From contig CAITFY010000074.1 of assembly GCA_903891755.1 (NCBI GenBank), forward strand, positions 1-50,980: a stretch of DNA of 50,980 nt, in the 5' to 3' direction. Every line of letters begins with the position of its first letter. Position 1 is the first letter of the stretch. The stretch comes from an uncultured Actinomycetes bacterium. GTDB lineage: Bacteria > Actinomycetota > Actinomycetes > Nanopelagicales > Nanopelagicaceae. Of the stretch, positions 1,767 to 43,627 are shown in pieces. The position numbers were made by a program, and so were the translations under genes. Below the pieces are notes generated by a model. It was not told the origin of the DNA. It worked only from the letters and a program-made list of their open reading frames with translations, and made no database searches.

Positions 1767-2300
1767 ATGAGTTCACGTGAATCACTTAAGTCAGAAATCC
1801 TTAATAAGGCTGTTGTCCATGGCAAAGTAATTCTCTCCTCGGGCAAAGAAGCTGATTACTACGTTGATCTGCGCCGCATCACTCTTGATTCAGTTGCCGC
1901 TCCCCTGGTTGGAGAGGTCATGCTTGAACTCACCAAAGATTGGGATTACGAAGCGGTTGGTGGATTAACACTGGGTGCAGATCCGGTCGCAACCGCGATG
2001 ATGCATGTTGCCGCAAGTAAAGGTCGCAAGCTAGATTCTTTTGTAGTTCGCAAGGCAGAGAAAGCTCATGGCTTACAACGACGTATCGAGGGTCCAGATG
2101 TTGTTGGTAAGAGAGTTCTTGCAGTCGAAGACACCTCGACGACCGGTGGTTCAGTGCTAACAGCAGTTGAAGCGCTTAAAGAGGCTGGAGCAATTGTCGT
2201 TGGAGTTGCGGTCATTGTTGAACGCGGTGCCAAAGAAACTGTTGAAGCCGCAGGACTGGAATATCGTGCGGCGTATCAGTTAGCAGATCTCGGTTTATAA
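1767..2300 (+). CDS. pyrE: Orotate phosphoribosyltransferase
   Basis: 177-aa type I PRTase with the PRPP-binding loop VLAVEDTSTTGGS and an OPRT-like N-terminus (GKEADYYVDLRR). Confidence 0.85.
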   Translation: MSSRESLKSEILNKAVVHGKVILSSGKEADYYVDLRRITLDSVAAPLVGEVMLELTKDWDYEAVGGLTLGADPVATAMMHVAASKGRKLDSFVVRKAEKAHGLQRRIEGPDVVGKRVLAVEDTSTTGGSVLTAVEALKEAGAIVVGVAVIVERGAKETVEAAGLEYRAAYQLADLGL

Positions 2301-2308
2301 ATTTTTAA

Positions 2309-2944
2309 TTAGGAGAGGTGCTTGCGACTGCGCCACTCTTTGAAGATCTCCCAGCCAAGCGGGATCACTGTGATACCAGCAATAACTAGAACAATATCTG
2401 TCAGATATTTCGAGATGGTATCTGCGAAAGTATTTCCAGCAGCGTATGCACCCCAAATGAGTACTTGGGTCCAGATGAGGGCACCAAAGACATTCCAGAA
2501 TGCGAAAGTTTTAAAAGGAACTCGAATAATTCCCGAGAGTGGGTTTATGAGTCCGCGAACTACAGGAATGAAGCGTCCAAGGACGATGGCGCGACCACGG
2601 CCATATTTGGTGATGTATTTTTCAGCAGACTTAATCTTGCCGGGATCGAAGAACTTTGAATTTGGACGGCTAAAGATTCTGATGCCGTAATGCCAGCCCA
2701 ACCAGTGGCCGAACTGAGAACCAATAATGGCGGCGATTGGCGCCCCAGCCGCGACAACCGCGATATTGAGGTGGTGTCCACTTGTGGAACCAATACCTGC
2801 GGCGAAGAGGCCGGCGGTGATGAGCAAGGTATCCCCAGGCAGACCGATGATGAGCGGCAAGCCAGTCTCAAGGGCCAAAATGGCAAAGATGATGACCAAC
2901 GAATAGTTGGAATTAAGGGCTGAGGTAACGCTTATAAAGCTCAT
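2309..2944 (-). CDS. DedA/SNARE-associated family membrane protein
   Basis: Multi-TM 211-aa protein with the DedA-like core GRFIPVVRGLINPLSGI. Confidence 0.75.
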   Translation of the reverse strand: MSFISVTSALNSNYSLVIIFAILALETGLPLIIGLPGDTLLITAGLFAAGIGSTSGHHLNIAVVAAGAPIAAIIGSQFGHWLGWHYGIRIFSRPNSKFFDPGKIKSAEKYITKYGRGRAIVLGRFIPVVRGLINPLSGIIRVPFKTFAFWNVFGALIWTQVLIWGAYAAGNTFADTISKYLTDIVLVIAGITVIPLGWEIFKEWRSRKHLS

Positions 2945-3064
2945 AGGGTTACAGGATACCGATTGATAGCGCGAAATCTGTCATAGACCTTATATATATG
3001 TGTAACCTTTCAACCCTTAGAAGGTCAGGAATGCCACCTATCCACTCAACGAGGAGTCAAAATA

Positions 3065-5323: not shown

Positions 5324-5347
5324 TCGCGTAATAGTTCTGGTAACAGT

Positions 5348-5364
5348 GAGGGCGTAACGCTCTC
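5348..5364 (+). terminator. Weak hairpin downstream of hppA
   Basis: gagggcg-taa-cgctctc forms a 7-bp stem (one G-U pair) with a 3-nt loop. There is no clear U tract. Confidence 0.2.
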
Positions 5365-5396
5365 TCTTCCCTAAAGAGCTCGAGGAGTTAATTAAT

Positions 5397-8162: not shown

Positions 8163-10196
8163 ATGTCCCAAGCGCTGCCATATCCCTCCGCCCCCGCGCA
8201 GTCGGAATCCCGCAGCGTCTTAGCGATCCCAGCATTCCGCAAACTCTGGAAGAGCATGGCCTTCTCCTCATTTGGAGATTGGCTCGGGCTTCTCGCCTCT
8301 ACTGCTCTCGCTCAAGAGCTCGCCGGAGGCAATTACCGTAAAGCCAACTTTGCTATTGCTGGTGTCTTCATCGTCCGCCTCCTCCCTGCCGTTTTATTAG
8401 GACCTCTTGCGGGGGTGATTGCAGATCGCTTTGATCGCAGACGGTTGATGATTGTCTGTGATGTTCTGAGGTTTGGTTTCTACCTATCAATCCCATTGGT
8501 GCATAGCTACATCTGGCTATATACCGCAACGGTAATTGTTGAAGCGGTCACGCTCTTCTGGTCTCCGGCCAAGGAAGCCTCAGTTCCTAATTTAGTTCCG
8601 AAAGAGAAGCTTGAATCGGCCAATCAGATGACCTTGCTCGCAAGTTATGGCAGCGCACCTGTAGCGGCTTTCGCCTTCACCTTTCTCGCGCTGATTGCAA
8701 AAACTTTTACATCTGCAGGTAATACTCGTTATACCTCAGCTGCTGATTTAGCACTTTATATCGATGCAATCTCATTCCTCTACACAGCGTGGATTGTCTA
8801 TCAATTACAAACTATTCCTAGGGGTTCGGCATCAAAGAGTGCAGTAAATGACAATCTCGGTAAATCACTTATAGATGGCTTTAAATTTGTCTCTCAATCA
8901 AAAGTTATCAGCGGATTAATCCTTGGCATGCTCGGTGCTTTCTTCGCTGCAGGTGCAGTCTTTGGATTAGCGAGAACATTTGCTGGAGATCTTAACGCGG
9001 GCGACTCCGCCTATGGAATTTTATTTGCTTCGGTATTTTCAGGTTTAGCACTCGGTGCTTGGCTTGGACCCAAAATCTTTGGGCAATTCTCTAGAAGGCG
9101 CATCTTTGGACTTTCACTCACGGCATCTTCATTGTTCTTGGCAATTCTTGCACTTTCAACAAATATCGTACTTGCCATATTAATGACTGTATTTGTAGGA
9201 GCTTTCGCTGGACTCTCACTTGTCACCGGACAAACTCTCCTGGGTATGGAAGTTGAAGATGATGTGCGCGGCAGAACTTTTGCCTTCGTGCAATCGCTGA
9301 TTCGCATCTCACTTATATTGGTTTTGGCAATTGCACCAATAATTGCGGCATCAATCGGAAGACATGAATTCACGATAGATAATATTCATCTGCGTTACAG
9401 CGGCGCTGAGTTCACAATGTTTGGGGCAGGTTTTATTGGTTTGGTTGTAGGAATCATCTCCTATAAACGCATGAAAGATCGTCCCAATGTTTCATTCTTC
9501 TCAGACATTATGGCCGCTTTCCGTGGAGAACTTGGTGGCATAACAGGCCACTCCCATAAGGGAATCTTTATCGCCTTCGAAGGCGGCGAAGGCTCAGGAA
9601 AGTCAACGCAGTCGCAACTTCTAAAGAAATACCTCACCAGTATTGGCGAGGAAGTAGTTGTAACTAGGGAACCCGGCGGCACAGTACTAGGTAAACAATT
9701 GCGGAAGATTTTGTTAGACCCTAAGACTGGCGAGATTTCACCGCGTGCAGAGGCTCTACTTTATGCAGCAGATAGAGCAAACCACGTTCACACAATCATC
9801 CAGCCAGCACTAGAGCGAGGCGAGATTGTTATTACAGATCGCTATTTGGATTCTTCGATTGCATACCAAGGTGCAGGGCGCGTTCTTCAACCCAATGAGG
9901 TAGCCAGAATTTCTCGCTGGGCGACTGAATCGCTAACCCCCAACCTGACAATCATCATGGATGTACCAGCAGAGATTGGGTTAAGCAGACTCGAGAGCGT
10001 CGACCGACTGGAACAAGAACCACTTGCCTTCCACGAAAGAGTTCGACGTGAATTCCTAAATTTGGCAAATCTTGATCCAGAACGTTACTTTGTTGTAAAC
10101 GCTACGCAAGACGTTGAAGTAATTGGCGCACAAATTCAAGAACGCGTCTCGAAACTTCCACACCTGAAGATTAACCGCGAAAAAACCAAGAAGTAG
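8163..10196 (+). CDS. tmk: Fusion protein: N-terminal MFS transporter-like domain plus C-terminal thymidylate kinase
   Basis: Residues 1 to about 440 are polytopic and MFS-like (FRKLWKSMAFSSFGDWLG...). From about nt 9558 there is a complete Tmk domain with P-loop FIAFEGGEGSGKST, a DRY-like motif (ITDRYLDSSIAYQG) and a lid region. Confidence 0.85.
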   Translation: MSQALPYPSAPAQSESRSVLAIPAFRKLWKSMAFSSFGDWLGLLASTALAQELAGGNYRKANFAIAGVFIVRLLPAVLLGPLAGVIADRFDRRRLMIVCDVLRFGFYLSIPLVHSYIWLYTATVIVEAVTLFWSPAKEASVPNLVPKEKLESANQMTLLASYGSAPVAAFAFTFLALIAKTFTSAGNTRYTSAADLALYIDAISFLYTAWIVYQLQTIPRGSASKSAVNDNLGKSLIDGFKFVSQSKVISGLILGMLGAFFAAGAVFGLARTFAGDLNAGDSAYGILFASVFSGLALGAWLGPKIFGQFSRRRIFGLSLTASSLFLAILALSTNIVLAILMTVFVGAFAGLSLVTGQTLLGMEVEDDVRGRTFAFVQSLIRISLILVLAIAPIIAASIGRHEFTIDNIHLRYSGAEFTMFGAGFIGLVVGIISYKRMKDRPNVSFFSDIMAAFRGELGGITGHSHKGIFIAFEGGEGSGKSTQSQLLKKYLTSIGEEVVVTREPGGTVLGKQLRKILLDPKTGEISPRAEALLYAADRANHVHTIIQPALERGEIVITDRYLDSSIAYQGAGRVLQPNEVARISRWATESLTPNLTIIMDVPAEIGLSRLESVDRLEQEPLAFHERVRREFLNLANLDPERYFVVNATQDVEVIGAQIQERVSKLPHLKINREKTKK

Positions 10197-26410: not shown

Positions 26411-28147
26411 TTGCTTACTAAGATTCTGAAGAGATACCTGCGCCCTTACAAGAGGCAGGTCTACCTCATCATTTTGATGCTCTTAATCCAAGCAATCGCC
26501 AGCTTGTACCTGCCAAACCTCAACGCCGATCTCATCAACAACGGAGTAGCAAAGGGCAACATTGGTTACATCTGGCATATCGGAGAAATCATGTTGGCTT
26601 CCAGCGCCTTGGTTATGGGTGCCTCGATACTCCTTGCCTTCTTAGCGGCGAGAGTCGCGATGGCCTTTGGTCGAGATCTCCGCTCAGCAGTATTTGTTGC
26701 GGTGGAAGGATTTTCTGCCCGCGAATTGAGCAAATTTGGAGCCCCATCACTTATTACTCGAAACACAAATGATGTGCAGCAGGTACAACTCGTTCTCTTC
26801 ATGGGTTTCACGATGATGATTGGAGCACCAATCACCGGAATTGGCGCGATTATTATGGCGCTGCGTTCTAACCTCAAGCTATCTTCTTTATTGCTTGTCG
26901 TACTACCAATCATGTCCCTTTTGATAATTCTTCTCTTGCGAAGAATCGTCCCAGCATTCCGAGTCATGCAGGTAAAGATTGATCGAATTAATTTAGTGCT
27001 CCGCGAACAGATTTCTGGCGTTCGAGTAATTCGTGCCTTTGTTAAGACCCGCCAAGAAGAATCTCGATTCGAAGAGGCTTCTTTAGATCTCATGCGGTCA
27101 CAACTTCACGTAACTAGAACCTTTGCTGTTATGTTCCCAGCGTTATCAATGATCTTGAATCTTTCGTCGGTAGCCGTTATCTGGTTCGGTGCAAAACTCA
27201 TCGATTCCGGAAATCTACAAATCGGAAATATGACGGCATTTCTCAGCTACATCATGTTGATACTGAGTAGCGTCATGATGGCTATCTTTATGTCACTTCA
27301 AATTCCAAGGGCGGCAGCTTGTGCAGAGCGCATCCAAGAAGTGCTAGATACAAAATCATCGGTTGTTGAAAGTTTAAATCCTCAAGTTCCATTAATTCGC
27401 CAAGGAGTCATTGAATTTGTCGGTGCTGAATTCCGTTATCCGGGAGCTGAACATCCGATCTTGTCCGACATCTCATTTACCGCAAAACCAGGCCAATTCA
27501 CGGCAATTATTGGATCTACGGGATCTGGCAAAACAACACTTTTGAACCTTATTCCGCGTTTTATAGATGTTACCGGCGGCGAAGTTTTACTAGATGGCAT
27601 CGATGTTCGCAATCAATCGCTAGAAGCACTCTGGTCAGAACTTGGTCTAGTTCCACAACGCTCATTCCTCTTTGGTGGAACCGTTGCGCAGAATTTACGA
27701 TATGGAAAATCTGATGCCACAGACGAAGAGCTTTGGAATGCACTAGAGATCGCGCAAGCTCGCGATTTCATCGATGAATTGCCAGAGAAGTTAGAAGCTA
27801 GAGTCGCCCAAGGTGGCACCAATTTTTCAGGTGGACAGCGTCAGCGCCTCTCAATTGCGCGAGCACTTGTAAAAAAGCCCCAGGTTCTTATCTTTGATGA
27901 TTCGTTTAGCGCATTGGATTACACAACAGATTCCAAACTTCGTTCGGCACTTCACGAAGTAATGGGTCACACGACCATGATTGTGGTGGCGCAGCGAGTC
28001 TCGACAATTTTGAAGGCTGATCAAATTGTCGTTCTGGATCAGGGCCACGTCGTGGAAATTGGTACTCATTCGGAGTTGATGAAGAGCAGCGAGACCTATC
28101 AAGAAATTGTCTTATCTCAACTCAGTCCAGAGGAGGCAGCATCATGA
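26411..28147 (+). CDS. ABC exporter half-transporter (TMD-NBD), degenerate-site subunit
   Basis: Walker A GSTGSGKTT and signature FSGGQRQR. Walker B is followed by Asp rather than Glu (LIFDDSFSALD), and the H-loop His is replaced by Gln (VVAQRVST). Confidence 0.85.
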   Translation: MLTKILKRYLRPYKRQVYLIILMLLIQAIASLYLPNLNADLINNGVAKGNIGYIWHIGEIMLASSALVMGASILLAFLAARVAMAFGRDLRSAVFVAVEGFSARELSKFGAPSLITRNTNDVQQVQLVLFMGFTMMIGAPITGIGAIIMALRSNLKLSSLLLVVLPIMSLLIILLLRRIVPAFRVMQVKIDRINLVLREQISGVRVIRAFVKTRQEESRFEEASLDLMRSQLHVTRTFAVMFPALSMILNLSSVAVIWFGAKLIDSGNLQIGNMTAFLSYIMLILSSVMMAIFMSLQIPRAAACAERIQEVLDTKSSVVESLNPQVPLIRQGVIEFVGAEFRYPGAEHPILSDISFTAKPGQFTAIIGSTGSGKTTLLNLIPRFIDVTGGEVLLDGIDVRNQSLEALWSELGLVPQRSFLFGGTVAQNLRYGKSDATDEELWNALEIAQARDFIDELPEKLEARVAQGGTNFSGGQRQRLSIARALVKKPQVLIFDDSFSALDYTTDSKLRSALHEVMGHTTMIVVAQRVSTILKADQIVVLDQGHVVEIGTHSELMKSSETYQEIVLSQLSPEEAAS

Positions 28148-30111
28148 GCCAGCGTGCACCTCAAGGTGGCCGCCCACCGATGGCTGGACAAGTCGGCCGA
28201 GGTGGTCCGATGGCGGGAATGATGGGTGGTCCGCCGCAAAAGTCTAAAGATTTCAAGGGTTCGCTACGCCGATTACTCCGTGAAGTAGGCGAAGAACGTA
28301 AATCGCTCTACGCGGTATTTGTTCTTATTACTTCTGCCGTAACTATTGGTTCACTAGGGCCAAAGATTCTTGGCCACGCCACTAATGACATTTTCTACGG
28401 ATTCCTTGGCCACAAGTTGCCTGCAGGTCTTACAAAAGCTCAAGTGGTGGCAAATTTACGCGCAAAGGGAGAGGACACTCTTGCGGATGTTGTAAATAAG
28501 AGTGGGGTAATTCCGGGTAAAGGAATTGACTTCACTGCCGTCGCACATTGGATCTTCTTAGCGATTGGTTTATATGTAATTTCATCTCTCTTCCTTTGGC
28601 TACAGCAATACTTAATGGCTGGCGTTACACAGAAGACGGTATTTAGATTGCGCCGATTAGCGGAGGAGAAGATTGGCCGCCTCCCACTCAGTTACTTCGA
28701 TAAGACTTCAAGAGGAGATTTGCTCTCTCGAGTTACAAACGATGTAGATAACATCTCAACATCAATGCAACAGGGTCTTTCTCAAATCCTGAACTCTGTC
28801 CTAACCGTGCTCTCTGTGCTCATTATGATGATCTGGATTAGCCCACTTTTGGCACTGATCTCGCTCATTGCTATTCCATTATCAATGTTTGTTTCCATTC
28901 GCATCGCGAAAGCATCTCAGAAGCAATTTATTGCGCAATGGGATTGGACTGGAAAACTCAATGGACATGTTGAAGAGATGCACACGGGCGCAGCACTAGT
29001 AAAGGTATTTGGTCGTCGGAAACAAGCGATTACAGATTTTAAAGAGCTCAACGAAAACCTCAATCAATCTTCATTCAATGCGCAATTCATGTCGGGCATC
29101 ATCATGCCTTCAACAACTTTTATCTCGAATCTAATTTATGTCGGAATATCAGTTCTGGGCGGGTACCGAGTTGCAACCGGAACGATGTCACTCGGTGACG
29201 TGCAAGCATTTATTCAGTACTCACGCCAATTTGGAATGCCACTTGCTCAGATCGCGGGATTGATGAATACCGTGCAATCAGGCGTTGCTTCTGCAGAGAG
29301 ATTGTTTGAACTTCTCGATGCGCCGGAAGAGGAACCCGATCGCGCTTCCAGCGTATCCGTTGATCGCGCCATGGGAGCAATTTCATTCAAGAGCGTCTCA
29401 TTTAGATATCAAGAAGATCAACCGCTCATCGAAAACTTCAATCTTGAAGTCTCCCCAGGTCAGAGCGTCGCGATTGTTGGCCCCACGGGTGCGGGGAAGA
29501 CCACGCTGGTAAACCTAATTATGCGTTTCTATGAGATCAATGGTGGAGTGATCACCCTTGATGGTGTGAACACCCGGGAAATAAGTCGCGATGACTTACG
29601 CCACCAATTCGGAATGGTTCTTCAAGATACCTGGTTGTTCTCCGGAACCATCCGCGAGAACATCGCCTTCGGTTCCACCAACCCGAGCTTGGATGCAGTT
29701 ATTGAGGCGGCCAAGGCAGCGAATATTGACCACTTCATCCGAGGGTTGCCAGGCGGTTATGAGTCAGAGCTAACGGATGACAACTCCACCGTTTCAAATG
29801 GAGAGCGTCAATTGCTCACCATTGCACGCGCCTTTATGGCTGACCCTGCTGTTCTCATTCTTGATGAGGCAACCTCATCAGTGGATACCCGAACTGAGGT
29901 TCTCGTCCAGCACGCCATGTCGAAGTTGCGACAAGGCCGGACCAGCTTTGTCATCGCCCACCGGCTCTCGACGATCCGCGATGCTGACACCATCCTGGTG
30001 ATGGATAAAGGTGCCTTGGTAGAGCAAGGCAATCACGAGCAATTGATGGCGGCAAAGGGCTTCTATTACGACCTTTACGCTAGCCAGTTCGCCTCAGCAG
30101 CCTCAGAGTGA
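28144..30111 (+). CDS. ABC exporter half-transporter (TMD-NBD), consensus-site subunit
   Basis: Walker A GPTGAGKTT, canonical Walker B-Glu (LILDEATSSVD) and H-loop (IAHRLST), but a degenerate signature VSNGERQ. ATGA overlap with the upstream partner. Confidence 0.85.
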   Translation: MSQRAPQGGRPPMAGQVGRGGPMAGMMGGPPQKSKDFKGSLRRLLREVGEERKSLYAVFVLITSAVTIGSLGPKILGHATNDIFYGFLGHKLPAGLTKAQVVANLRAKGEDTLADVVNKSGVIPGKGIDFTAVAHWIFLAIGLYVISSLFLWLQQYLMAGVTQKTVFRLRRLAEEKIGRLPLSYFDKTSRGDLLSRVTNDVDNISTSMQQGLSQILNSVLTVLSVLIMMIWISPLLALISLIAIPLSMFVSIRIAKASQKQFIAQWDWTGKLNGHVEEMHTGAALVKVFGRRKQAITDFKELNENLNQSSFNAQFMSGIIMPSTTFISNLIYVGISVLGGYRVATGTMSLGDVQAFIQYSRQFGMPLAQIAGLMNTVQSGVASAERLFELLDAPEEEPDRASSVSVDRAMGAISFKSVSFRYQEDQPLIENFNLEVSPGQSVAIVGPTGAGKTTLVNLIMRFYEINGGVITLDGVNTREISRDDLRHQFGMVLQDTWLFSGTIRENIAFGSTNPSLDAVIEAAKAANIDHFIRGLPGGYESELTDDNSTVSNGERQLLTIARAFMADPAVLILDEATSSVDTRTEVLVQHAMSKLRQGRTSFVIAHRLSTIRDADTILVMDKGALVEQGNHEQLMAAKGFYYDLYASQFASAASE

Positions 30112-35118: not shown

Positions 35119-36240
35119 ATGCGTAGCCTCAAACTCCGTTTCGCAATAGCGGTTGCTAGAAGTGCCAGCGCCACCTCAAAACTTCTTGGACACAAGGGAG
35201 AAACTCTCCCAGGTCGAATTCTCCTAGCTATTGAGCCTGAAGCTATCTCCTTGCTGGCTCAGGGCAAAGAGGTAATTTTGGTTTCGGGAACAAATGGAAA
35301 GACCTCAACCACAAAAGCTCTGACAACGATTGTCTCTCAACTTGGACCTGTGGCAACTAGTGGATCGGGCTCAAATTTAGCGTGGGGCGCAGCAAACGCC
35401 TTAATGTCATCAGCCCCATACGCAGTCCTTGAAATTGATGAACTTCACCTTCCTTCAATTATTGCGCAGACAGATCCCACCATCGTCCTCCTTCTAAATC
35501 TGACCCGCGATCAACTCCATCGCATGCATGAGGTAAAGCGTGTGGCTGATCGTTGGCATGTTGAATGTTCTGAAGCGACAAACACAATATTTGTCGCCGA
35601 CATTGATGATCCTTACATCAACTACTCGATAGTCAATGCAATCAATGTGGTCAGAGTTTCATTTGGTGGAAGAACGCACCCTGATGGCGCCGTCTGTCCA
35701 CGCTGTGGAAGTTACTTAACATGGGTGAGAGGAAATTACTCCTGCACCTGTGGATTGAATAACAAGATTAATGAATTGAAATTTAAGAAAGGCTCTGCCT
35801 CATACCGCAATGCAATTCTCGCGAATATCGTTGGAGAGATTGTTGGCGCGGACCCTGTTGAGTTTACAGAGACCGCGCTGGAACGGAGCGTCACCAAGGA
35901 AATAGATGGCAAGAGCGCTCACTTCAGATTAACTAAGAACCCCGCTTCTTGGACCGAAGCGTTACAAGGCGATTTGCATCATGATGTAGTGCTTGTCCTC
36001 AACGCAAGACAGGTTGATGGAATCGATACTTCGTGGCTCTGGGATGTCTCATTTAAAGCCTTAAAAGGCCACCGGGTCTTTGTATGCGGTGAACGCGCGC
36101 TTGATATGGCTAACAGAATTCATGTTGAAGGTGTTACTCCAGAAGTTGTAGAGAGCGTTGATGTTGCACTATCGCTTGCTACAGGTTCTGAGATCAGCGT
36201 CTTATCTGCCTACACCGCCTTTTTTGAGTTGGTGATGTGA
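35119..36240 (+). CDS. murT: Lipid II isoglutaminyl synthase, Mur-ligase-like subunit MurT
   Basis: Mur ligase P-loop VSGTNGKTST, Cys4-type ribbon CPRCGSYLTWVRGNYSCTCG, and a C-terminal DUF1727-like region. It is coupled to gatD. Confidence 0.8.
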   Translation: MRSLKLRFAIAVARSASATSKLLGHKGETLPGRILLAIEPEAISLLAQGKEVILVSGTNGKTSTTKALTTIVSQLGPVATSGSGSNLAWGAANALMSSAPYAVLEIDELHLPSIIAQTDPTIVLLLNLTRDQLHRMHEVKRVADRWHVECSEATNTIFVADIDDPYINYSIVNAINVVRVSFGGRTHPDGAVCPRCGSYLTWVRGNYSCTCGLNNKINELKFKKGSASYRNAILANIVGEIVGADPVEFTETALERSVTKEIDGKSAHFRLTKNPASWTEALQGDLHHDVVLVLNARQVDGIDTSWLWDVSFKALKGHRVFVCGERALDMANRIHVEGVTPEVVESVDVALSLATGSEISVLSAYTAFFELVM

Positions 36241-36929
36241 TGTTAGAAATTATCCGCATTCATAATGAACTCTTAGGTACATATGGCGATCGCGGAAATA
36301 GCGACGTGCTGCAGTACCGAGCGGGGCTACGAAAAATCAAGGCACGCGTTACAGATATTTCATATCTCGATCCGCTTCCTCGGAGTGGAGATATATATCT
36401 TCTTGGTGGCGCGGAAGATGCTGCGCAATTATTATCACTAACCGCGCTCCGCAAAGGTTCCATATTGGCTCGCGCTGCCAATAAAGGAGCAGTAGTACTC
36501 GCCATATGCGCCGGCTTCCAACTTCTCGGAACGAAGTACACCACCCGCGATGAAGAGTTTGTGGGACTTGGACTTCTCGATGTATTTACGGCACCTGGAG
36601 ATAAGAGATTGGTTGGAGATATCGCAGTTAAATCCCCACTCTTTGAAGTTCCACTCACTGGATTTGAAAATCACAGAAGCGTAACCACGCTCGGTCCTGA
36701 TGCCACGCCATTTGCCAGCGTTATTTCAGGAAACGGAAATGGTGTTGCCGGCCTTGATGGAGCAATGAGCGAGAATGTTTTCGGAACCTATTTACATGGC
36801 CCAGTACTTGCGCGTAACCCAGAATTCGCTGATTTACTCCTTGAACGTGCGCTTGGAACCAGCATTAAACCGGTCGATGATGATCTCGCTACCGAATATG
36901 CGAAGTGGCGAAGAACTCTGATTAAGTAG
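36237..36929 (+). CDS. gatD: Lipid II isoglutaminyl synthase, glutaminase subunit GatD (CobB/CobQ-like GATase)
   Basis: Nucleophile Cys in LAICAGFQLLG and His in GTYLHGP. 4-nt overlap with murT. Confidence 0.8.
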   Translation: MMLEIIRIHNELLGTYGDRGNSDVLQYRAGLRKIKARVTDISYLDPLPRSGDIYLLGGAEDAAQLLSLTALRKGSILARAANKGAVVLAICAGFQLLGTKYTTRDEEFVGLGLLDVFTAPGDKRLVGDIAVKSPLFEVPLTGFENHRSVTTLGPDATPFASVISGNGNGVAGLDGAMSENVFGTYLHGPVLARNPEFADLLLERALGTSIKPVDDDLATEYAKWRRTLIK

Positions 36930-37067: not shown

Positions 37068-38825
37068 ATGTCTACGTTCCGCAATTTAGGTGTTACCCCT
37101 GCGCTCTGCGAGGCTCTTGAGGCCGAAGGCAAGACCGCTCCATTTCCTATTCAAACCGCAACCCTGCCTGACGCTATTAAGGGCCGCGATGTCCTTGGCC
37201 GCGGTCAGACTGGCTCCGGAAAAACCCTCGCCTTTGGTTTAGCGATGCTCACCCGCCTCAATGGCCGTACGGCAAAGCCTCACAAGCCACTAGGACTCAT
37301 CCTCTCTCCAACCCGCGAATTAGCGGTCCAGATCAATGATGTCGTCTCCCCACTTGCTCGCAAGATTGGGCTCTCCTCACAAGTTGTCGCTGGAGGCCTT
37401 TCATATATCGGCCAAATCCAAGCTCTTAAGCGTGGAGTGCCAGTAATCGTCGCAACCCCAGGTCGCTTGATGGATCTTCTCGAGAAGAAGCACATCGATC
37501 TATCAGATGTCATGATCACAGTTCTTGATGAAGCAGATCAGATGGCTGATATGGGATTCATGCCTGTCGTTAAAGAGATTCTCTCTCTTACTCAAGAGGG
37601 CGGACAACACCTGCTCTTCTCTGCAACTCTCGATCGCGATGTTGACTCACTCGTTAAGCGATTCCTTAAAGATCCAATTACTCACTCTCTTGAAAATGAG
37701 AAGTCGCGCGCAGTTGATATGACCCACCACTTGTTGCTCCTTGATCAACAACATAAAGATGAGATCTCATCTCAAATCGCAGCACGTGATGGCCGCACAA
37801 TCTTCTTCGTCCGCACTAAGCACGGCGCTGATAAGTTAGCTGAGAAGATGCTTCGCAGCGGTGTTCCAGTTGGCGTATTGCACGGCGGAAAATCTCAAGG
37901 TCAACGCACCCGCGTACTCAAAGCATTCAAAGATGGACGTGCTTCAGCACTCGTAGCAACAGATGTTGCCGCTCGTGGTATCCACGTAGATGATGTCTCA
38001 CTTGTTGTGCATGTTGATGCACCTGCGGATCATAAAGATTATCTACACCGCGCAGGTCGCACCGCTCGTGCTGGTGCAACCGGTACCGTCGTAACACTTG
38101 CAACACATAAGCAGAAGAAGGCGGTCTTTGGTATTACCAACCGCGCTGCTGTAAAGCTCATTGAAAATCAGGTTCGCCCTGGAGATGCAAAGCTTCAAGA
38201 AATTACTGGCGCACAAGAGCCATCAGGTATTCCAATTGAGGTAGAGGCTGAGAAGCCATCTCGCAACGATCGTAAGCCTGGTAGCCGCAGTCGCTCTAAT
38301 GATCGCGGTAATCGCGATGGCAACTTCAAGCCACGTAAATCTGGTGGAGGACGTTTTGAGAGCCCTTCAAAGGCTGAAGGCGCAGAAGTTCGCACCGAAC
38401 GCACCTTTAGTTCAGAGCGCACAGATCGCACCTTCCAAGCTCCTCGCGATGCTCGCGATTCTCGCCCAGCACGCGATGCTCGTGAAGTTCGTGAAGAGCG
38501 TCGCCCCAAGAGTGATCGTTCATTTAATTCCGATCGTCCTTTCCGCTCTGCACCAAAGAAGTGGGAAGAGAAGGCTCGTGAGTCACGTACTCGCGAAGAG
38601 AGCGCACCAGCTGCTGGAAATCGTGGACGCGTTGAAGGCGTTGCTCGTCCAGCAAAGAAAGCTCCTCGTATGCCACTTGAGAAGCGCATTGCACTTGAGA
38701 AGGCAGAGTCCCGCGCCCGCGCTGGCGGAAAGCCTGTCAAAGGTGGAGCTGGTCCAAAGAAATTTGGAAAAGCTGGCGGAAAGCCTTTTAAGGGTGGAAA
38801 GCCAAGCCAGGCTAAGCGAGGCTAA
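37068..38825 (+). CDS. DEAD-box ATP-dependent RNA helicase with a long basic low-complexity C-terminal tail
   Basis: Motifs GQTGSGKT, PTRELA, VLDEAD, SAT and HRAGRTARAG. The tail from about aa 385 is rich in R/K/D/E/S/G and has short repeats (ERTxRTF, RDAR). Confidence 0.9.
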   Translation: MSTFRNLGVTPALCEALEAEGKTAPFPIQTATLPDAIKGRDVLGRGQTGSGKTLAFGLAMLTRLNGRTAKPHKPLGLILSPTRELAVQINDVVSPLARKIGLSSQVVAGGLSYIGQIQALKRGVPVIVATPGRLMDLLEKKHIDLSDVMITVLDEADQMADMGFMPVVKEILSLTQEGGQHLLFSATLDRDVDSLVKRFLKDPITHSLENEKSRAVDMTHHLLLLDQQHKDEISSQIAARDGRTIFFVRTKHGADKLAEKMLRSGVPVGVLHGGKSQGQRTRVLKAFKDGRASALVATDVAARGIHVDDVSLVVHVDAPADHKDYLHRAGRTARAGATGTVVTLATHKQKKAVFGITNRAAVKLIENQVRPGDAKLQEITGAQEPSGIPIEVEAEKPSRNDRKPGSRSRSNDRGNRDGNFKPRKSGGGRFESPSKAEGAEVRTERTFSSERTDRTFQAPRDARDSRPARDAREVREERRPKSDRSFNSDRPFRSAPKKWEEKARESRTREESAPAAGNRGRVEGVARPAKKAPRMPLEKRIALEKAESRARAGGKPVKGGAGPKKFGKAGGKPFKGGKPSQAKRG

Positions 38826-39414
38826 TTTCTCTATCGAAGTATTGTGAGATGGCGTCCTGATTGTGAGAAATCACCAGGACGCCTTTCTCTTTTCGTAACT
38901 CAGAAATTATCTGCAGAATTCCCTCGATCGATTGTGAATCCTGCGCGCTAAATGGTTCATCAAGCAAGTAGTAATTAGCGCTCTGTGTAAGTGCGAGAGC
39001 CAAACTCACTCTCTCCTGCTGACCAATAGATACTTCGGTCACTTTACGAGATAAGAGATCATTCAAATTTAATTTCTCGATAATGGCTGCGCTATCTTTT
39101 ATGCGCGCCGCCTTTGGAAGAAAATTCAGAACTTCTTGCACTGTGAATGCCAGGGTAAATGATCTGCGTTGTGGCGCGATGGAGCGAAGTGCCGCTTGGC
39201 CCTTTGAATTGAGCGAAGCAATATCAACGCCATCAATTTCAATGTTGCCGGTTTGAGGTTTGAGCAATCCCCCAATCAGGGCAACCAGGGTGCTCTTTCC
39301 AGAACCATTGGGACCGGTGAAGAGAACGGACTCCCCTTGCGCCAACTCTGCACTGAAATCTGAATAGATGGGTGAACCCCCACGCGCAAAGGAGATGTTG
39401 TTAACTCTAATCAT
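38812..39414 (-). CDS. hmuV: Iron-chelate/heme-type ABC importer ATPase (compact, 200 aa)
   Basis: Walker A GPNGSGKST, Q-loop, variant signature VSIGQQERV, Walker B YYLLDEP, and H-loop ISHN. Confidence 0.7.
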   Translation of the reverse strand: MIRVNNISFARGGSPIYSDFSAELAQGESVLFTGPNGSGKSTLVALIGGLLKPQTGNIEIDGVDIASLNSKGQAALRSIAPQRRSFTLAFTVQEVLNFLPKAARIKDSAAIIEKLNLNDLLSRKVTEVSIGQQERVSLALALTQSANYYLLDEPFSAQDSQSIEGILQIISELRKEKGVLVISHNQDAISQYFDREISLA

Positions 39415-40387
39415 GACTCACCCATGATGCACGTTTTACTTTAAGCAAGATGATGAGTGCAGGTGCGCCTAGCAAGGATGTCAGTAGACCGAGCGGTATT
39501 TCATTTGGCTGAAAGAGAGTTCTTGCTAAGAGATCAGCCAACAAGAGAACGATTGCGCCCACTAAGGCGCTTAGAGAGAGCATCTTTCGGTGTGCGGGAC
39601 CAATTAAGAGCCGCACAATATGTGGAACAAGTAGACCGATAAATGCGATGGCTCCTACAGCACTTACTGAAGCGCCAATGAGAAATGCCAGGCCAATAAT
39701 TGCGTAGAGGCGCAATCTCTTGGGATTGACACCCATGTAATGCGAGGAGCTCTCGCCGAGTGAGTAGATATCCAAACGTCGGGATACAAAGAAAGAGATG
39801 ATGATGCCGATTTCAATATAGGGAGCGATCATCCCAACTGTCGCATTGTTAAGAAGAGTTAAAGATCCAAAGTCCCAGAAGGTAATCGATTGAATCCCGG
39901 GCTTAGGAGACATTGAAATGAGGAGGCCAGCAAAGGAGGTTAAAATCGCTGAAATTGCGATACCAGTAAGGAGAAATCCAAAACCTTTGCTTGGAGCGAG
40001 CCACTGGACTAAGAGCGCGGTGAGAGCGGATGCAAGTACAGCCGCACCAATATTTGATCTTGTCCCATACACAGAAGCCCCGGAGGCAATCAAAGTAATG
40101 GTTCCGAGCGTTGCTCCACTTGATAACCCAATGAGAGTTGGCTCAGCTAAGGGGTTTCTGAAAATACCTTGCGCTACTGATCCCGCCACGCCTAACCCAG
40201 CCCCAATGATTACTGCACCCAATGCGCGGGGAAATCTCACCTGCCAGACAGTTGTCGCATCAACGCCATCTTTGCCAATAAGTGAGAAGACCGAGCTGTG
40301 AAGTTTCAAAATACCGATGTCGAGTGAGAGCCAGAAGAGAAATAGGAGAACGGCTGAACCGCCAAGATAGATGGCTACCTTCTTCAT
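39407..40387 (-). CDS. hmuU: FecCD-family ABC importer permease
   Basis: 326-aa polytopic protein with FecCD-like regions (RFPRALGAVIIGAGLGVAGSVAQGIFRNPLAEP, LLGAPALIILL). Confidence 0.8.
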   Translation of the reverse strand: MKKVAIYLGGSAVLLFLFWLSLDIGILKLHSSVFSLIGKDGVDATTVWQVRFPRALGAVIIGAGLGVAGSVAQGIFRNPLAEPTLIGLSSGATLGTITLIASGASVYGTRSNIGAAVLASALTALLVQWLAPSKGFGFLLTGIAISAILTSFAGLLISMSPKPGIQSITFWDFGSLTLLNNATVGMIAPYIEIGIIISFFVSRRLDIYSLGESSSHYMGVNPKRLRLYAIIGLAFLIGASVSAVGAIAFIGLLVPHIVRLLIGPAHRKMLSLSALVGAIVLLLADLLARTLFQPNEIPLGLLTSLLGAPALIILLKVKRASWVSHD

Positions 40388-41286
40388 CTCTTGGATGCCG
40401 TCACAATCAATTGATGTAATTGCTTGGCCATCGGAATGGTACGAGGTCCAAAGGAAAGCAAGAGCGAGTCATCAACCGTAACTACACGCTTGTGAATTCC
40501 CGCCGGTGTTTGTGCAATACCCGGAAAGGCAACCAAGCCACTGATTCCGCCGACTGATTCCAACCCCTTTGTCATAAGGAGAAGTACGTCGGGTTGAAGC
40601 TTTATTAGTTCCTCTGCCGTAAGGGCGTTAAATGGATTCTTTAGATTCGTAGCGCCCACATCTATAAATCCATCTGCTTTCAGCAACGAATCAGCACCGG
40701 AACCTGGGCCGCCGATGAGATAGATCGAAGCAGTGCCTCGCATATACAAGAATGCCACCTTGATCGATTGCTTTGGGAAATGCAACAAACTTACTTGAGC
40801 GATCAGCGCTTTGCCGGCCTTGGGGACATGAAGCGCTTGAGAGATTACGCTCTCTTTCGCTTGAATATCCGCCAAGGTGAATGCACTTGGAACTAATACC
40901 ATTCGGATTTTTGCAGAGCGCAACGTGTTGAGAGCGCTAGCCGGAGTTGTATTTGAGTCAATGAAAACAATATCTGGGTGTTGTGAGAGGACTGCTTCTG
41001 CAGAGACTTGCATAGCTGATTCATCAATAGGAATTGATTTCAATTCCGGCATCGTTGATGCAATATCTCGACCAACCAAATATTTCCGGTATCCAAGGGC
41101 GGCAACAATTTCTGCAGAACCGTTAGCTAGCGCGACGATTCTCTTATATGCAGGTATCTCTCCCGAATTAATTATCGGCAATGAAATTTGCGATGCAGTT
41201 ATATCCGACACCGCCGCCTGAGCTGTAGGCAAAAATAGCGAAGAGAGGGCGACGGTGGAGCTAATAAGTATCGCCCGCAATCTCAT
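40384..41286 (-). CDS. hmuT: Peripla_BP_2 (heme/siderophore/cobalamin class) solute-binding protein, HmuT-like
   Basis: Signal peptide, then RIVALANGSAEIVAALG, PDIVFID, PDVLLLM and a C-terminal LLSFGPRT motif reminiscent of hemin-binding HmuT/ShuT proteins. The call is by eye. Confidence 0.65.
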   Translation of the reverse strand: MRLRAILISSTVALSSLFLPTAQAAVSDITASQISLPIINSGEIPAYKRIVALANGSAEIVAALGYRKYLVGRDIASTMPELKSIPIDESAMQVSAEAVLSQHPDIVFIDSNTTPASALNTLRSAKIRMVLVPSAFTLADIQAKESVISQALHVPKAGKALIAQVSLLHFPKQSIKVAFLYMRGTASIYLIGGPGSGADSLLKADGFIDVGATNLKNPFNALTAEELIKLQPDVLLLMTKGLESVGGISGLVAFPGIAQTPAGIHKRVVTVDDSLLLSFGPRTIPMAKQLHQLIVTASKR

Positions 41287-41369
41287 CTGCGTATTCTGAC
41301 ACTTACTTTTCCGACATGGGCGCCGAAGTTGTCGGAGCAGAATTAGAGACTATCTCTTAGATTTACCCC

Positions 41370-41846
41370 ATGAATAAGCGGTTTTTTGCGGCTCTCGCAC
41401 TCTGTCTCACATTAGGAATTAGCGTTGCAGATGCTGCCACCGGTCAACATGGTGAGGTTCTAACGGTTTCAAAGATTTCAGGGATAAAGAGCGGTGAAAC
41501 TTTAACGGTCTCCGGCAAAGGCTTTGACACGACTGTCGGAATATACGTGGAGCTCTGTCAAATAGTTCCAGCTGGAACTCTGCCTCAGGTATGTGGTGGA
41601 GGAGTGAATATGTCCGGCAGCGGAGCAGCTTCATTCTGGATCTCATCCAATCCACCTAGTTATGGAAAGCATTTAGCGATTCCATTTAAGACAGGTGGCA
41701 CTTTCTCGGTTGCGCTAAAAGTTCAACCGAAGATTGGCAAAGTTGATTGTAGAAAGAGGGCATGCGCAATCTACATCCGCGCAGATCACACTAGAACACA
41801 AGATCGCACTCACGATATAAAAATTCCAATCACTTTTTCAAAATAA
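41370..41846 (+). CDS. Small secreted 4-Cys beta-sandwich protein, neocarzinostatin-apoprotein-like (paralog 1)
   Basis: Sec signal peptide (…ISVADA/ATG). The mature part opens LTVSKISGIKSGETLTVSGKGFD..GIYVELC, and it has Cys pairs spaced like the two NCS disulfides (C-x11-C and DC-x4-C). It ends in IPITF. Confidence 0.55.
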   Translation: MNKRFFAALALCLTLGISVADAATGQHGEVLTVSKISGIKSGETLTVSGKGFDTTVGIYVELCQIVPAGTLPQVCGGGVNMSGSGAASFWISSNPPSYGKHLAIPFKTGGTFSVALKVQPKIGKVDCRKRACAIYIRADHTRTQDRTHDIKIPITFSK

Positions 41847-41888
41847 AACAGTTCACTACATCAAATACGAGAGAGCAGAGAGAAGAAT

Positions 41889-42329
41889 ATGAATAAGAAA
41901 ATAATCGCATCGTTAGCAGTAGCACTAGTTGTAGTTGCCGCCCCAATGGCAAGTGCAAAGGCGAAGGTCGTTGCATCACCAACCAAGAACTTGTCCCAAA
42001 AGACAGCGGTGGTCACATTTAAGTTCTCCGGTCTTCCAACCAAGAACGGCGTATATATTGAGGAATGCATGGCACCCGCCACAAAAGGCGCAGCTCCAAC
42101 AGTCTGCGATTCAGATCAGAGCGTTCAAGCATGGGTTTCCAATGTAAAGGCAGATATCGCTCAAGGTGCTACTTCAGGCGCAGGCAAAATAAAGTTCAAG
42201 CCAGTTCCTTATTTCACCAATGGTGATTGCGTCCACACAACGTGTGTCTTCTTTATTACTAATGACCACAATGCTGCTGGCGATAAGTCACAGAATCAGA
42301 CGATTCCATTTACCTTCTCAAATAAGTAA
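41889..42329 (+). CDS. Small secreted 4-Cys beta-sandwich protein, neocarzinostatin-apoprotein-like (paralog 2)
   Basis: Sec signal peptide (…PMASA/KAK). It shares GVYIEEC, P-VC, AWVSN, DCxxxxC, the DH motif and a C-terminal IPFTF with the upstream paralog. Confidence 0.55.
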   Translation: MNKKIIASLAVALVVVAAPMASAKAKVVASPTKNLSQKTAVVTFKFSGLPTKNGVYIEECMAPATKGAAPTVCDSDQSVQAWVSNVKADIAQGATSGAGKIKFKPVPYFTNGDCVHTTCVFFITNDHNAAGDKSQNQTIPFTFSNK

Positions 42330-42344
42330 ATATTTAATCGGTAA

Positions 42345-42932
42345 TTAATTAGTAGGTAGGGCTCGAAGTCCAGCAAGCGCGAAAGTTACAGCGCTTAGGA
42401 TTTCGAGCTCTGCGTCATTTCCGGCATCAATACGTATAGAAGCAGCATCCGTCACGCTTGCTAGTAGCGCCGCGGCTGCTCGAACATTTGAAATCCCCGC
42501 CTCGATCAACGAATCTTGAAGTGGCGCCATCATGCGACGGTGACCCATCAAAATCTCATCCTTGCGAGAAGTTGGAGTATTGATTGTGTTTAACGATTTC
42601 ACCAACATGTGGCGGCCATCAGCTACGTAGAGAAGGCTCTCGGTAATCCAGAGTTCGATACGGGTGAATGGATCGGTAGCACCGCTAATTGCCTGTGTTA
42701 AACGCTCGGTGTAATACTCAAGCTCCTCTAAAACAAGGTCAGCGACTAAATCTGCGCTGGAAGCAAAATATTCATAGATGGAACTTCGGGCTAATCCGGC
42801 TTTCGCCGCAACCGCCGCAACCGTGATTGATTCCGCGCCATTTGCTAAAGCCAGCTCCATCGCAGCATCAATCAGTTGCTGGCGACGAAGTTCTCGATGC
42901 AGCGCAACGGTCGGTGCTTGAATCTTTGGCAT
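42345..42932 (-). CDS. TetR-family transcriptional regulator
   Basis: N-terminal HTH ITVAAVAAKAGLARSSIYEYF. It is divergent from azoR. Confidence 0.85.
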   Translation of the reverse strand: MPKIQAPTVALHRELRRQQLIDAAMELALANGAESITVAAVAAKAGLARSSIYEYFASSADLVADLVLEELEYYTERLTQAISGATDPFTRIELWITESLLYVADGRHMLVKSLNTINTPTSRKDEILMGHRRMMAPLQDSLIEAGISNVRAAAALLASVTDAASIRIDAGNDAELEILSAVTFALAGLRALPTN

Positions 42933-42967
42933 AGGAGCAGAAGTATCTCACCCTTTGCTGAATGGCG

Positions 42968-42989
42968 AATTGTTGAATTTTCAACTATT
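42968..42989. promoter_or_regulatory. Candidate TetR operator in the tetR-azoR divergent region
   Basis: The core inverted repeat GTTGAA-tt-TTCAAC (42972-42985) extends imperfectly to AATtGTTGAA / TTCAACtATT. Confidence 0.4.
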
Positions 42990-43018
42990 CTGAACTTTCA
43001 TCTATTAGTGAGGTAAAA

Positions 43019-43627
43019 ATGTCCGATCTTCTACACCTAGAAGTTAGCCCTCTTGGGGAACGTTCGATTTCACGCTCAATTTCTAAAGAGTTTCTCTCAG
43101 CATTCAGCGCGCGGCACCCAGAAGCGCTCATTGTGAGCCGTGATTTGGCTACCGATCCCATTCCTCACCTTGATGGCGAAACCCTCATGGCTGGTCGTAT
43201 CCCTGAAGCTGAACGTAGTCCCACCACGCAATTGAAATTTGAGTTGCGTCAGGAACTGGCACGAGAAGTGAACGCGGCAAAACATATTTTGATCTCAACC
43301 CCCATGTGGAACTTCTCAGTACCCTCAGTATTGAAGGCATGGATAGATCAAATCCTTATCACCGGATTTACACATGTAACCGGCAAAGTAACAATCATCG
43401 TCTCCCAAGGTGGTTCTTATGCAGAGGGAGCGCCACGCGCAGGCTGGGATTGGGAAACCGGTTACCTCCGTCAAGTATTTAGCTCGATAGGTGCTACAGA
43501 TACTGAAATTATCTTGTCTGAATTTGGATTGGCTGGAGTTGTCCCCGCTATGGCAGATTTCGTCGACCGCAAAAATGAATCAATCAGTGCCGCTAAAGCA
43601 GCAGCCGCTATACGAGGCGGAGTTTAA
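43019..43627 (+). CDS. azoR: FMN-dependent NADH-azoreductase / quinone reductase
   Basis: 202-aa flavodoxin-like protein. Its N-terminus (LLHLEVSPLGERSISRSISKEF...DLATDPIPHLDGE) parallels AzoR/AcpD, and it contains STPMWNFSVPSVLKAWID. Confidence 0.75.
   Translation: MSDLLHLEVSPLGERSISRSISKEFLSAFSARHPEALIVSRDLATDPIPHLDGETLMAGRIPEAERSPTTQLKFELRQELAREVNAAKHILISTPMWNFSVPSVLKAWIDQILITGFTHVTGKVTIIVSQGGSYAEGAPRAGWDWETGYLRQVFSSIGATDTEIILSEFGLAGVVPAMADFVDRKNESISAAKAAAAIRGGV

Follow-up and report, generated by a model that had tools for sequence, protein, structure and literature searches.

Secreted proteins of a neocarzinostatin-like family beside a HmuTUV-type importer in Nanopelagicaceae: candidate accessories of heme uptake

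In this study, we analysed a 50,980-nucleotide stretch of DNA from an uncultured Nanopelagicaceae bacterium (contig CAITFY010000074.1 of assembly GCA_903891755.1, positions 1 to 50,980; hereafter the window, G+C ~48%) and in it two tandem genes for small secreted proteins, P1 and P2, which are transcribed divergently from the genes of an ATP-binding cassette (ABC) importer. The reading we favour, with a probability of roughly 0.58, is that P1 and P2 are extracytoplasmic heme-capture or heme-relay accessories of this HmuTUV-type importer. That they are involved in heme acquisition in some capacity is highly probable; that they bind heme directly is somewhat favoured, and the ligand residues and the direction of transfer are inferred as well. 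In support of this reading are the heme-type substrate-binding protein (SBP) of the importer, the conserved linkage of P1-type genes to such importers, the iron boxes of the Micromonosporaceae loci, the existence of fusion proteins, a fold that carries small molecules, and the heme auxotrophy of the host lineage. To our knowledge, the neocarzinostatin (NCS)-type fold is otherwise known only as a carrier of enediyne antibiotics. The features of the locus are as follows.

38812-39414, minus strand: ABC ATPase, HmuV-like, unusually short at 200 aa (PF00005, 1e-26)
39407-40387, minus strand: FecCD permease, HmuU-like, 326 aa (PF01032, 7e-77)
40384-41286, minus strand: HmuT-type heme SBP, 300 aa (Peripla_BP_2, 5e-18), containing LLSFGPRT
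41370-41846, plus strand: P1, open reading frame of 158 aa with predicted signal peptide 1-22 and mature domain 23-158; Cys pairs C63-C75 and C127-C132 and family-invariant residues Y59, W90, D139 and H140, from sequence and alignment
41889-42329, plus strand: P2, open reading frame of 146 aa with predicted signal peptide 1-23; paralog of P1

The importer, the secreted pair and their conserved linkage

An earlier note, made from the sequence without database searches, had called the binding protein HmuT-like, and its structural relatives bear this out. The nine best PDB matches of the SBP, with E 5e-37 to 4e-24, are without exception SBPs that bind heme, and its PDB relatives include 5gj3 (5e-37; also 5y8b), CgHmuT (5az3, 5e-31), Y. 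pestis HmuT (3md9, 2e-26), ShuT (2r7a) and 5b58, the SBP of a putative hemin transport system. The heme site of CgHmuT has an axial Tyr hydrogen-bonded to an Arg (PMC4926363), and we took its ligand positions from the mutant entries 5b50 and 5b51 (Y240A, R242A) and from 5b4z (His141). The sequence FLYMRGT of the window SBP aligns with FLYARGT of CgHmuT, so that both the axial Tyr240 and Arg242 are kept, while the second axial ligand, His141, is replaced by Met. The N-terminus of the SBP carries a cleavable-looking Sec signal (LPTAQA/AVSD) from which the lipobox Cys is absent; its orthologue in another locus (L045) has a classical LTGC lipobox.

The SBP, permease and ATPase genes form a compact operon in which starts and stops overlap between neighbours, and they are best interpreted as a HmuTUV-like heme importer, with a substrate predicted by homology. 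In NCBIfam, the ATPase scores best against NF010068, the model of heme ABC transporter ATP-binding proteins (6e-35, below cutoff, profile positions 5-213 of 261). It is ~60 residues shorter than this model, and the short form is kept in related loci. The 3' end of the ATPase gene overlaps the convergent gene of a DEAD-box helicase (37068-38825) by 14 nt.

The positions of the reading frames confirm what the earlier note had described, two tandem secreted paralogs with four Cys each, on the plus strand and divergent from an SBP/FecCD/ATPase importer on the minus strand. P1 and P2 share 27% identity (BLASTP E 9e-11), P2 retaining the four Cys, the Tyr, the Trp and the DH of P1 without the P1-specific GGG...WISSNPPSYG insert. 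Both have signal peptides with cleavage sites of the AxA type, as read from the sequence (VADA/AT after residue 22 in P1 and ASA/KA after residue 23 in P2), and no lipobox, LPXTG motif or C-terminal transmembrane segment was found in either sequence. This unanchored state, which P1 and P2 have in common with the window SBP, is notable. The two genes are probably co-transcribed, because no terminator-like site was found in the 42-nt gap between them and a purine-rich ribosome-binding site precedes P2.

We used a P1-type alignment to scan one genome per GTDB species, which gave more than 408 relatives, the closest genome relatives of the window being Nanopelagicaceae/acI metagenome-assembled genomes, and examined 80 loci, at which neighbours were detected by tblastn with the window proteins. 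In all 74 informative loci the P1 homologue has an SBP-permease-ATPase set as its neighbour, the other six being contigs that end too early. The arrangement of the genes varies: in Nanopelagicales the order ATPase-permease-SBP is divergent from P1, which is followed by P2 or a longer P2-like gene and then by a TetR gene, and in 11 Micromonosporaceae isolates, including Micromonospora, Actinoplanes, Dactylosporangium, Phytohabitans and Catenuloplanes, the P1 homologue is followed co-directionally by the SBP, permease and ATPase. Since the linkage outlasts rearrangement across orders, it argues for functional coupling of the P1-type gene and the importer. Two further variations concern the secreted proteins. 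In other Nanopelagicales (L026 6478-7476; L045 6489-7466) the gene after P1 encodes a protein of 325-332 aa with a P2-like domain and a ~180-aa C-terminal extension, the copy in L026 having lost its first Cys pair, and in Phytohabitans (L050 373-5197) three extra P1-like copies lie upstream of the locus.

The locus of Micromonospora sp. NBC_01405 (L064) has the order iron boxes, P1 homologue, hmuT, hmuU, hmuV, heme oxygenase (PF01126, 5.8e-51) and DUF2470. Its P1 homologue, of 282 aa, consists of a signal peptide, an NCS-like domain that passes the PF00960 cutoff (31 bits), a Pro/Ala-rich linker, a C-terminal transmembrane helix and the sequence RRWRRRK. The product of a divergent gene, 502 aa long, combines an HtaA domain (PF04213, 9e-42) with a further P1-like domain in its interior and has a C-terminus resembling WxL. 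Upstream of this fusion (2144-5809, minus strand) are genes for WxL and WxL-interacting (peptidoglycan-binding) proteins of a surface complex.

Fold, conserved residues and the wider family

The earlier note had proposed an NCS fold for both proteins, which our analyses support directly for P1 and, for P2, through its homology to P1. P1 falls just under the cutoff of PF00960 (22.8 bits; cutoff 25) and well under that of NF040680, the enediyne antibiotic chromoprotein model (E 1.2e-9, 38.1 bits; cutoff 86), which P2 matches with E 2e-6 and 27.7 bits; P2 has no match to PF00960. An AlphaFold2 model of P1 built from the family alignment had a predicted local distance difference test (pLDDT) score of 85.4 and a predicted template modelling score of 0.78, with the lowest confidence at residues 71-90, the P1-specific conserved insert. 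When this model was compared with the PDB by Foldseek, every one of the top 14 matches was to an enediyne apoprotein, with E 2e-6 to 1.6e-3, probability 1.0 and target-normalised TM-score 0.61-0.74. These matches comprised macromomycin, neocarzinostatin and its engineered variants, kedarcidin, C-1027 and actinoxanthin, and generic immunoglobulin (Ig) domains ranked below them. An NCS-type fold, a seven-stranded Ig-like sandwich, is therefore predicted by modelling for P1, and the same assignment for P2 rests on homology because its own model (pLDDT 87.3) retrieved generic Ig domains and no NCS.

The likeness in Cys spacing that had been noted between the pair and NCS also holds (C-x11-C and C-x4-C in P1, C-x12-C and C-x4-C in P2, C-x9-C and C-x4-C in NCS). 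In an alignment of the family profile to NCS, C63 falls on position 37, C127 on Cys88 and C132 on Cys93, so that the predicted disulfides of P1 and P2 appear to coincide with Cys37-Cys47 and Cys88-Cys93 of NCS. Wild-type NCS and its testosterone-binding variants differ at positions 33, 35, 37, 39, 45, 47, 52, 78, 94, 96 and 98, which we take to be the randomised ligand cleft. By this weak alignment (E 0.27), the invariant Y59, E61, A133, Y135 and the conserved R137 of P1 would fall on positions 33, 35, 94, 96 and 98, respectively, and D139 and H140 in the flanking loop that comes next, H140 two residues further along.

The motifs shared by P1 and P2 are real and go beyond chance. In an alignment of 37 P1-type and P2-type sequences, 12 residues are invariant (G57, Y59, C63, C75, W90, S92, C127, C132, D139, H140, D145 and F156, in the P1 numbering used for the family alignment throughout), and the G, the Y, the four Cys, the W, the D-H and the final F remain invariant when corynebacterial ThiX, described below, is added. 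A wider check covered 218 domains from 149 representatives (50% identity clusters), about 207 of which were aligned, and found conservation of Y59 in 190 domains, W90 in 191, C127 in 208, C132 in 207, D139 in 187 and H140 in 177. A further polar stretch (D145, R146, D149) is conserved, giving the signature [AN]DH-x4-DR-x2-D.

A profile search of 1.84 billion representatives revealed that the family is large, with 836 clusters (50% identity) at E <= 1e-3 and 230 at E <= 1e-30, and no model in NCBIfam names it. In a typical member, of 250-480 aa, the signal peptide is followed by a single domain, a linker of low complexity and, at the C-terminus, either a transmembrane segment with an Arg-rich anchor or an LPXTG motif; some members have 2-6 domains in tandem. 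Among 130 representatives of the broader family, 44 match PF00960 (E <= 1e-3), four are fused to Peripla_BP_2, and one each to HtaA, DUF2470 and WxL. The four SBP fusions are independent of one another, each having a signal peptide, one or more NCS-like domains and a HmuT-type SBP, in all four of which the sequence FLY[MIL]RG is present.

When P1, P2 and the family profile are compared with PDB sequences, all three match chain M of 7QHM/7QHO best, which is annotated as 'thiamine biosynthesis protein X' (ThiX; E 1.8e-5, 3.9e-6 and 1e-12, respectively); the match spans residues 32-165 of 168. ThiX belongs to the cytochrome bcc-aa3 supercomplex of C. glutamicum as a supernumerary subunit with a lipid anchor, and it sits there at the place of superoxide dismutase in the M. 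smegmatis complex, and its soluble domain is not resolved in the structure and its activity is not known (PMC8795186). Corynebacterial ThiX genes (L081 8001-8576; L083 8001-8558) are orphans with differing neighbours, isocitrate lyase in C. suranareeae and dnaG in C. diphtheriae. We therefore discarded their genomic context as a clue to function, and it gives no support for the name 'thiamine biosynthesis'. Since ThiX is encoded by an orphan gene and its product is found on a respiratory supercomplex, the family is not tied solely to import, which lends weight to a rival reading (below) but offers no mechanism for it.

Regulation and neighbouring genes

Control by iron had been raised as a possibility for the locus, and the outcome differs between lineages. 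The 19-bp IdeR/DtxR/DmdR iron box TTAGGTTAGGCTAACCTAA has no convincing counterpart in the window, the best candidates having 9/19 mismatches in the intergenic region and 6/19 anywhere in the window, and we rejected IdeR/DtxR control of the window locus on this basis. In the Micromonosporaceae the expectation was borne out: at all 11 loci, the ~270 bp preceding the P1 homologue contain one or two near-perfect boxes that differ from TTAGGTTAGGCTAACCTAA at 1-3 positions. In place of these boxes, the divergent promoter region of the window contains a repeat that is probably an operator. This repeat and a further regulatory gene are as follows.

41311-41335, no strand assigned: inverted repeat CCGACA-N13-TGTCGG, within the 83-bp divergent promoter region 41287-41369
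42345-42932, minus strand: TetR-family regulator (PF00440, 2e-10), convergent with P2

Of 65 related divergent loci, 49 have the CCGACA/TGTCGG repeat, which is 33-fold enriched relative to the rest of the same loci. Its spacer is solely 3 or 13-14 nt, two classes that differ by about one helical turn. A protein operator is favoured over an RNA stem because the half-sites do not vary, in contrast to the freely varying spacers, and we rejected an RNA hairpin on those grounds and for want of compensatory changes. The repeat resembles the operator of HrtR; however, the TetR-family protein was rejected as an HrtR-like heme sensor acting on it, there being no specific similarity to HrtR among its PDB matches. 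Nor does the TetR protein appear to be the regulator of the repeat in any other guise, as none of 57 loci has the CCGACA motif upstream of the TetR gene and the promoter region of that gene has a different palindrome. The TetR gene stays beside the locus across Nanopelagicales, at identities down to 38-45%, and is thus a persistent syntenic neighbour for which a functional tie to the heme locus is hypothetical. It forms a divergent pair with a Flavodoxin_2/azoreductase-like gene (43019-43627, plus strand), and the palindrome TTGTTGAATTTTCAACTATT lies between the two (~42960-42990) and is kept as TAGTTGAAAnTTCAACTA in relatives. In distant Nanopelagicales the TetR gene still adjoins the heme locus, with no flavodoxin-like gene detected beside it.

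No heme oxygenase gene was found in the stretch of the window examined. The iron boxes and heme oxygenase of the Micromonosporaceae, as against a different operator without an oxygenase here, would fit the use of heme to supply iron in the Micromonosporaceae and as a required cofactor in Nanopelagicales.

Elsewhere in the window, a single 677-aa reading frame (8163-10196, plus strand) combines an MFS domain (MFS_3/MFS_1, ~20-434) with a C-terminal thymidylate kinase domain (472-658) and is either an unusual fusion or a missed gene boundary. A Mur-ligase-like reading frame (373 aa) and its neighbour (230 aa) at 35119-36929 resemble, as read from their translations, the MurT/GatD pair of peptidoglycan amidation. 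A pair of ABC half-transporters at 26411-30111 was considered as CydDC and rejected, its matches being to generic exporters only.

A proposed heme relay, its alternatives and its likeness to known systems

In the mechanism we propose, P1 and P2 would be exported by Sec and each would fold as an Ig-like sandwich of the NCS type, stapled by disulfides. Heme, or hemin present in the water or in the hemoproteins of lysed cells, would be captured in the cleft that holds the chromophore in enediyne apoproteins, handed to the HmuT-like SBP and then imported through HmuUV. The two paralogs would probably act in series or serve separate heme sources, as do HtaA/HtaB or the NEAT proteins of Isd. Being unanchored, P1 and P2 of this Nanopelagicales genome could be free hemophores or, more likely, act inside the wall zone. 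The same domain is tethered by a C-terminal transmembrane helix, LPXTG or lipid in most other Actinobacteria, and because most relatives are thus anchored to the membrane or wall, a relay is better supported than a diffusible hemophore.

The biology of the lineage lends itself to such a system. Cultured Nanopelagicales lack heme biosynthesis (PMC12817590; bioRxiv 10.1101/2021.01.11.426183), and by analogy the host of the window is probably unable to make its own heme. Only strain IMCC25003 was found to have a hemTUV-like cluster, and 10 pM hemin suffices for its growth, while IMCC26103 needs >= 100 pM, and the authors of that preprint ask for the heme uptake systems of acI to be characterised (bioRxiv 10.1101/2021.01.11.426183). 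Our search of the literature for neocarzinostatin with heme, hemophore or HmuT found nothing but one passing remark, in which an NCS-domain gene beside an HtaA gene with a DmdR1 site was taken to indicate iron/heme acquisition and not biosynthesis (PMC13608877). The suggestion that the system had not been described consequently stands for its characterisation, although the adjacency of NCS-domain and HtaA genes had been mentioned once.

Several points weigh against a heme-relay role. The family has no known heme-binding member, and P1 and P2 have no sequence or fold likeness to the known heme domains. They had been said not to resemble HtaA, and this proved correct and extends to NEAT and HasA: P1 and P2 have no PF04213 match at E <= 1 and the family profile no HtaA chain in the PDB at E <= 10, and neither NEAT nor HasA appeared in Pfam at E <= 1, among the PDB sequence matches or in the top 50 Foldseek matches. 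The retrieval of only generic Ig domains by the P2 model is a further such point, as is the weakness of the alignment (E 0.27) by which the conserved Tyr and His would be placed at or beside the NCS cleft. The polar DH-x4-DR-x2-D motif could equally bind metal or be structural, a free-diffusing hemophore would be costly to a planktonic ultramicrobacterium, and ThiX, the only experimentally observed member of the family, is on a respiratory supercomplex, outside heme-uptake loci.

P1 and P2 might instead belong to a heme-uptake system without binding heme, as wall-spanning adaptors, docking partners of HmuT/HtaA, receptors for hemoproteins, or chaperones that hold the SBP near the membrane, for which the window SBP, having no lipid anchor, might need a partner. 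The linkage and the fusions do prove association and not ligand binding, many relatives are anchored and multi-domain (2-6 tandem copies, Ig/TIG or WxL modules) in a layout like that of stalks and adhesins, and Micromonospora already has a bona fide heme-binding HtaA domain. Yet the invariant Tyr, Trp, Asp-His and Arg across three subfamilies exceed the needs of a spacer, the Nanopelagicales loci contain no HtaA or other heme-binding module to which an adaptor could be fitted, and the known role of the fold is the carriage of ligands, and we consider this explanation unlikely. The possibility that the same importer takes up another ligand (a corrinoid, a chlorophyll- or heme-breakdown tetrapyrrole, a metal chelate, or a metal ion bound by the Asp/His motif) is quite improbable in our view. 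Siderophores and B12 also use Peripla_BP_2/FecCD importers, the permease scores alike against BtuC, FecC and FhuB models, and the missing His141 counterpart, the acidic, His-rich character of the DH-x4-DR-x2-D motif and the lack of an iron box in the window would all be accommodated. However, the top nine solved relatives of the SBP bind heme and its Tyr/Arg pair is intact, heme oxygenase, DUF2470 and HtaA occur in the operons of relatives, and the host lineage needs external heme (bioRxiv 10.1101/2021.01.11.426183).

Two explanations take their lead from the homologs of the pair. P1 and P2 may be ThiX-like accessory subunits of a bcc-aa3 supercomplex that deal with heme, copper or reactive oxygen on the outside of the membrane, their adjacency to hmuTUV reflecting a shared heme economy. 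This would account for the top rank of ThiX among the PDB sequence matches to P1, P2 and the profile and for its having all the invariant residues, and it agrees with the position of ThiX in place of the M. smegmatis superoxide dismutase (PMC8795186). Against it, ThiX has a lipid anchor and P1 and P2 have no anchor, and ThiX genes are orphans while P1-type genes always adjoin an importer, and we regard it as very improbable. We give almost no credence to P1 and P2 being true apoproteins of enediyne chromoproteins that carry or neutralise a secondary metabolite, in spite of the fold, the sub-threshold likeness to the hidden Markov models of such apoproteins and the flagging of such genes by antiSMASH-type tools (PMC13608877). 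The score of 38 bits is far from the equivalog cutoff of 86, the genomes of the host lineage are streamlined (< 1.5 Mb; PMC12817590), the largest reading frames of the 51-kb window are housekeeping or transport genes with no polyketide synthase among them, and the gene context is a heme-type importer at every informative locus. It was on this gene context that we rejected an enediyne-carrier role.

If P1 and P2 are indeed accessories of heme uptake, they would constitute a Gram-positive surface heme relay to an ABC importer on an unexpected fold, probably a new structural class and the third for heme-relay domains of Gram-positive bacteria, beside NEAT and HtaA. Among the bacterioplankton of fresh water, Nanopelagicales (acI) are the most abundant, and every cultured strain examined requires external heme. 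Lying beside their only HmuTUV-type importer, the module would make directly testable how acI captures heme at picomolar concentrations, an open question in the preprint cited above (bioRxiv 10.1101/2021.01.11.426183). A function would also be provided for hundreds of entries labelled 'neocarzinostatin family' or 'hypothetical', the mis-flagging of such genes as biosynthetic by genome-mining tools would be explained, and ThiX, an unexplained subunit of the respiratory supercomplex in corynebacteria, would gain a hypothesis for its role. A broader and more tentative proposal, which we hold a little less probable than its converse, is that the NCS-type fold is the scaffold of a widespread actinobacterial family for extracytoplasmic heme handling, whose unanchored members would scavenge picomolar heme in Nanopelagicales, whose anchored members would partner HtaA/HmuT in soil actinomycetes, and in which ThiX would be the heme handler of the supercomplex. 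Were this true, the enediyne apoproteins would represent a specialised branch that arose from an ancestral heme/ligand-relay family.

P1 and P2 can be compared with several known systems. ThiX (7QHM/7QHO) is homologous to the pair across the whole domain, with all the invariant residues present, but is lipid-anchored, encoded by an orphan gene and bound to a respiratory complex, whereas P1 and P2 have signal peptidase I (AxA) sites and no lipobox. With the enediyne apoproteins (neocarzinostatin, macromomycin, kedarcidin, C-1027 and actinoxanthin) P1 shares the predicted fold (TM-score ~0.7), the positions of the two disulfides and the N-terminal strand motif TVS..SGL..G..V.V.G.G. It differs from them in an insert of ~30 residues after the first disulfide, and the pair differs in the Trp90, Asp139-His140 and DR..D motif particular to its family, in scoring below the family thresholds and in having its genes in heme-uptake loci instead of an enediyne biosynthetic context.

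The Isd NEAT relay of Firmicutes is comparable in its use of small Ig-like beta-sandwiches that supply a Peripla_BP_2/FecCD importer and are often anchored to the wall and arranged in tandem, as well as in a conserved Tyr, which is a candidate ligand in the P1/P2 family likewise. The P1/P2 domain is distinguished from NEAT by having no YxxxY motif or NEAT match, by its two predicted disulfides and by a heme-binding role that is so far presumed. A parallel in genetic organisation is the HtaA/HtaB-HmuTUV system of Corynebacterium, in which secreted or surface proteins are encoded beside hmuTUV, as are P1 and P2. The Micromonospora homologue even takes the htaA-like first place in an iron-box hmuTUV operon and has a similar C-terminal transmembrane anchor, and a HmuT-type SBP with the Tyr/Arg heme site is common to both systems. 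Unlike HtaA/HtaB, P1 and P2 have a predicted NCS-type sandwich fold with no PF04213, are unanchored, and have no iron box in the window. The earlier note had placed them, as non-HtaA proteins, in the position of HtaA/HtaB; the dissimilarity holds, but Micromonospora has both kinds of protein and its HtaA protein carries a copy of the domain. The co-occurrence of the two, and even their fusion, in Micromonosporaceae suggests that they are partners, not equivalents.

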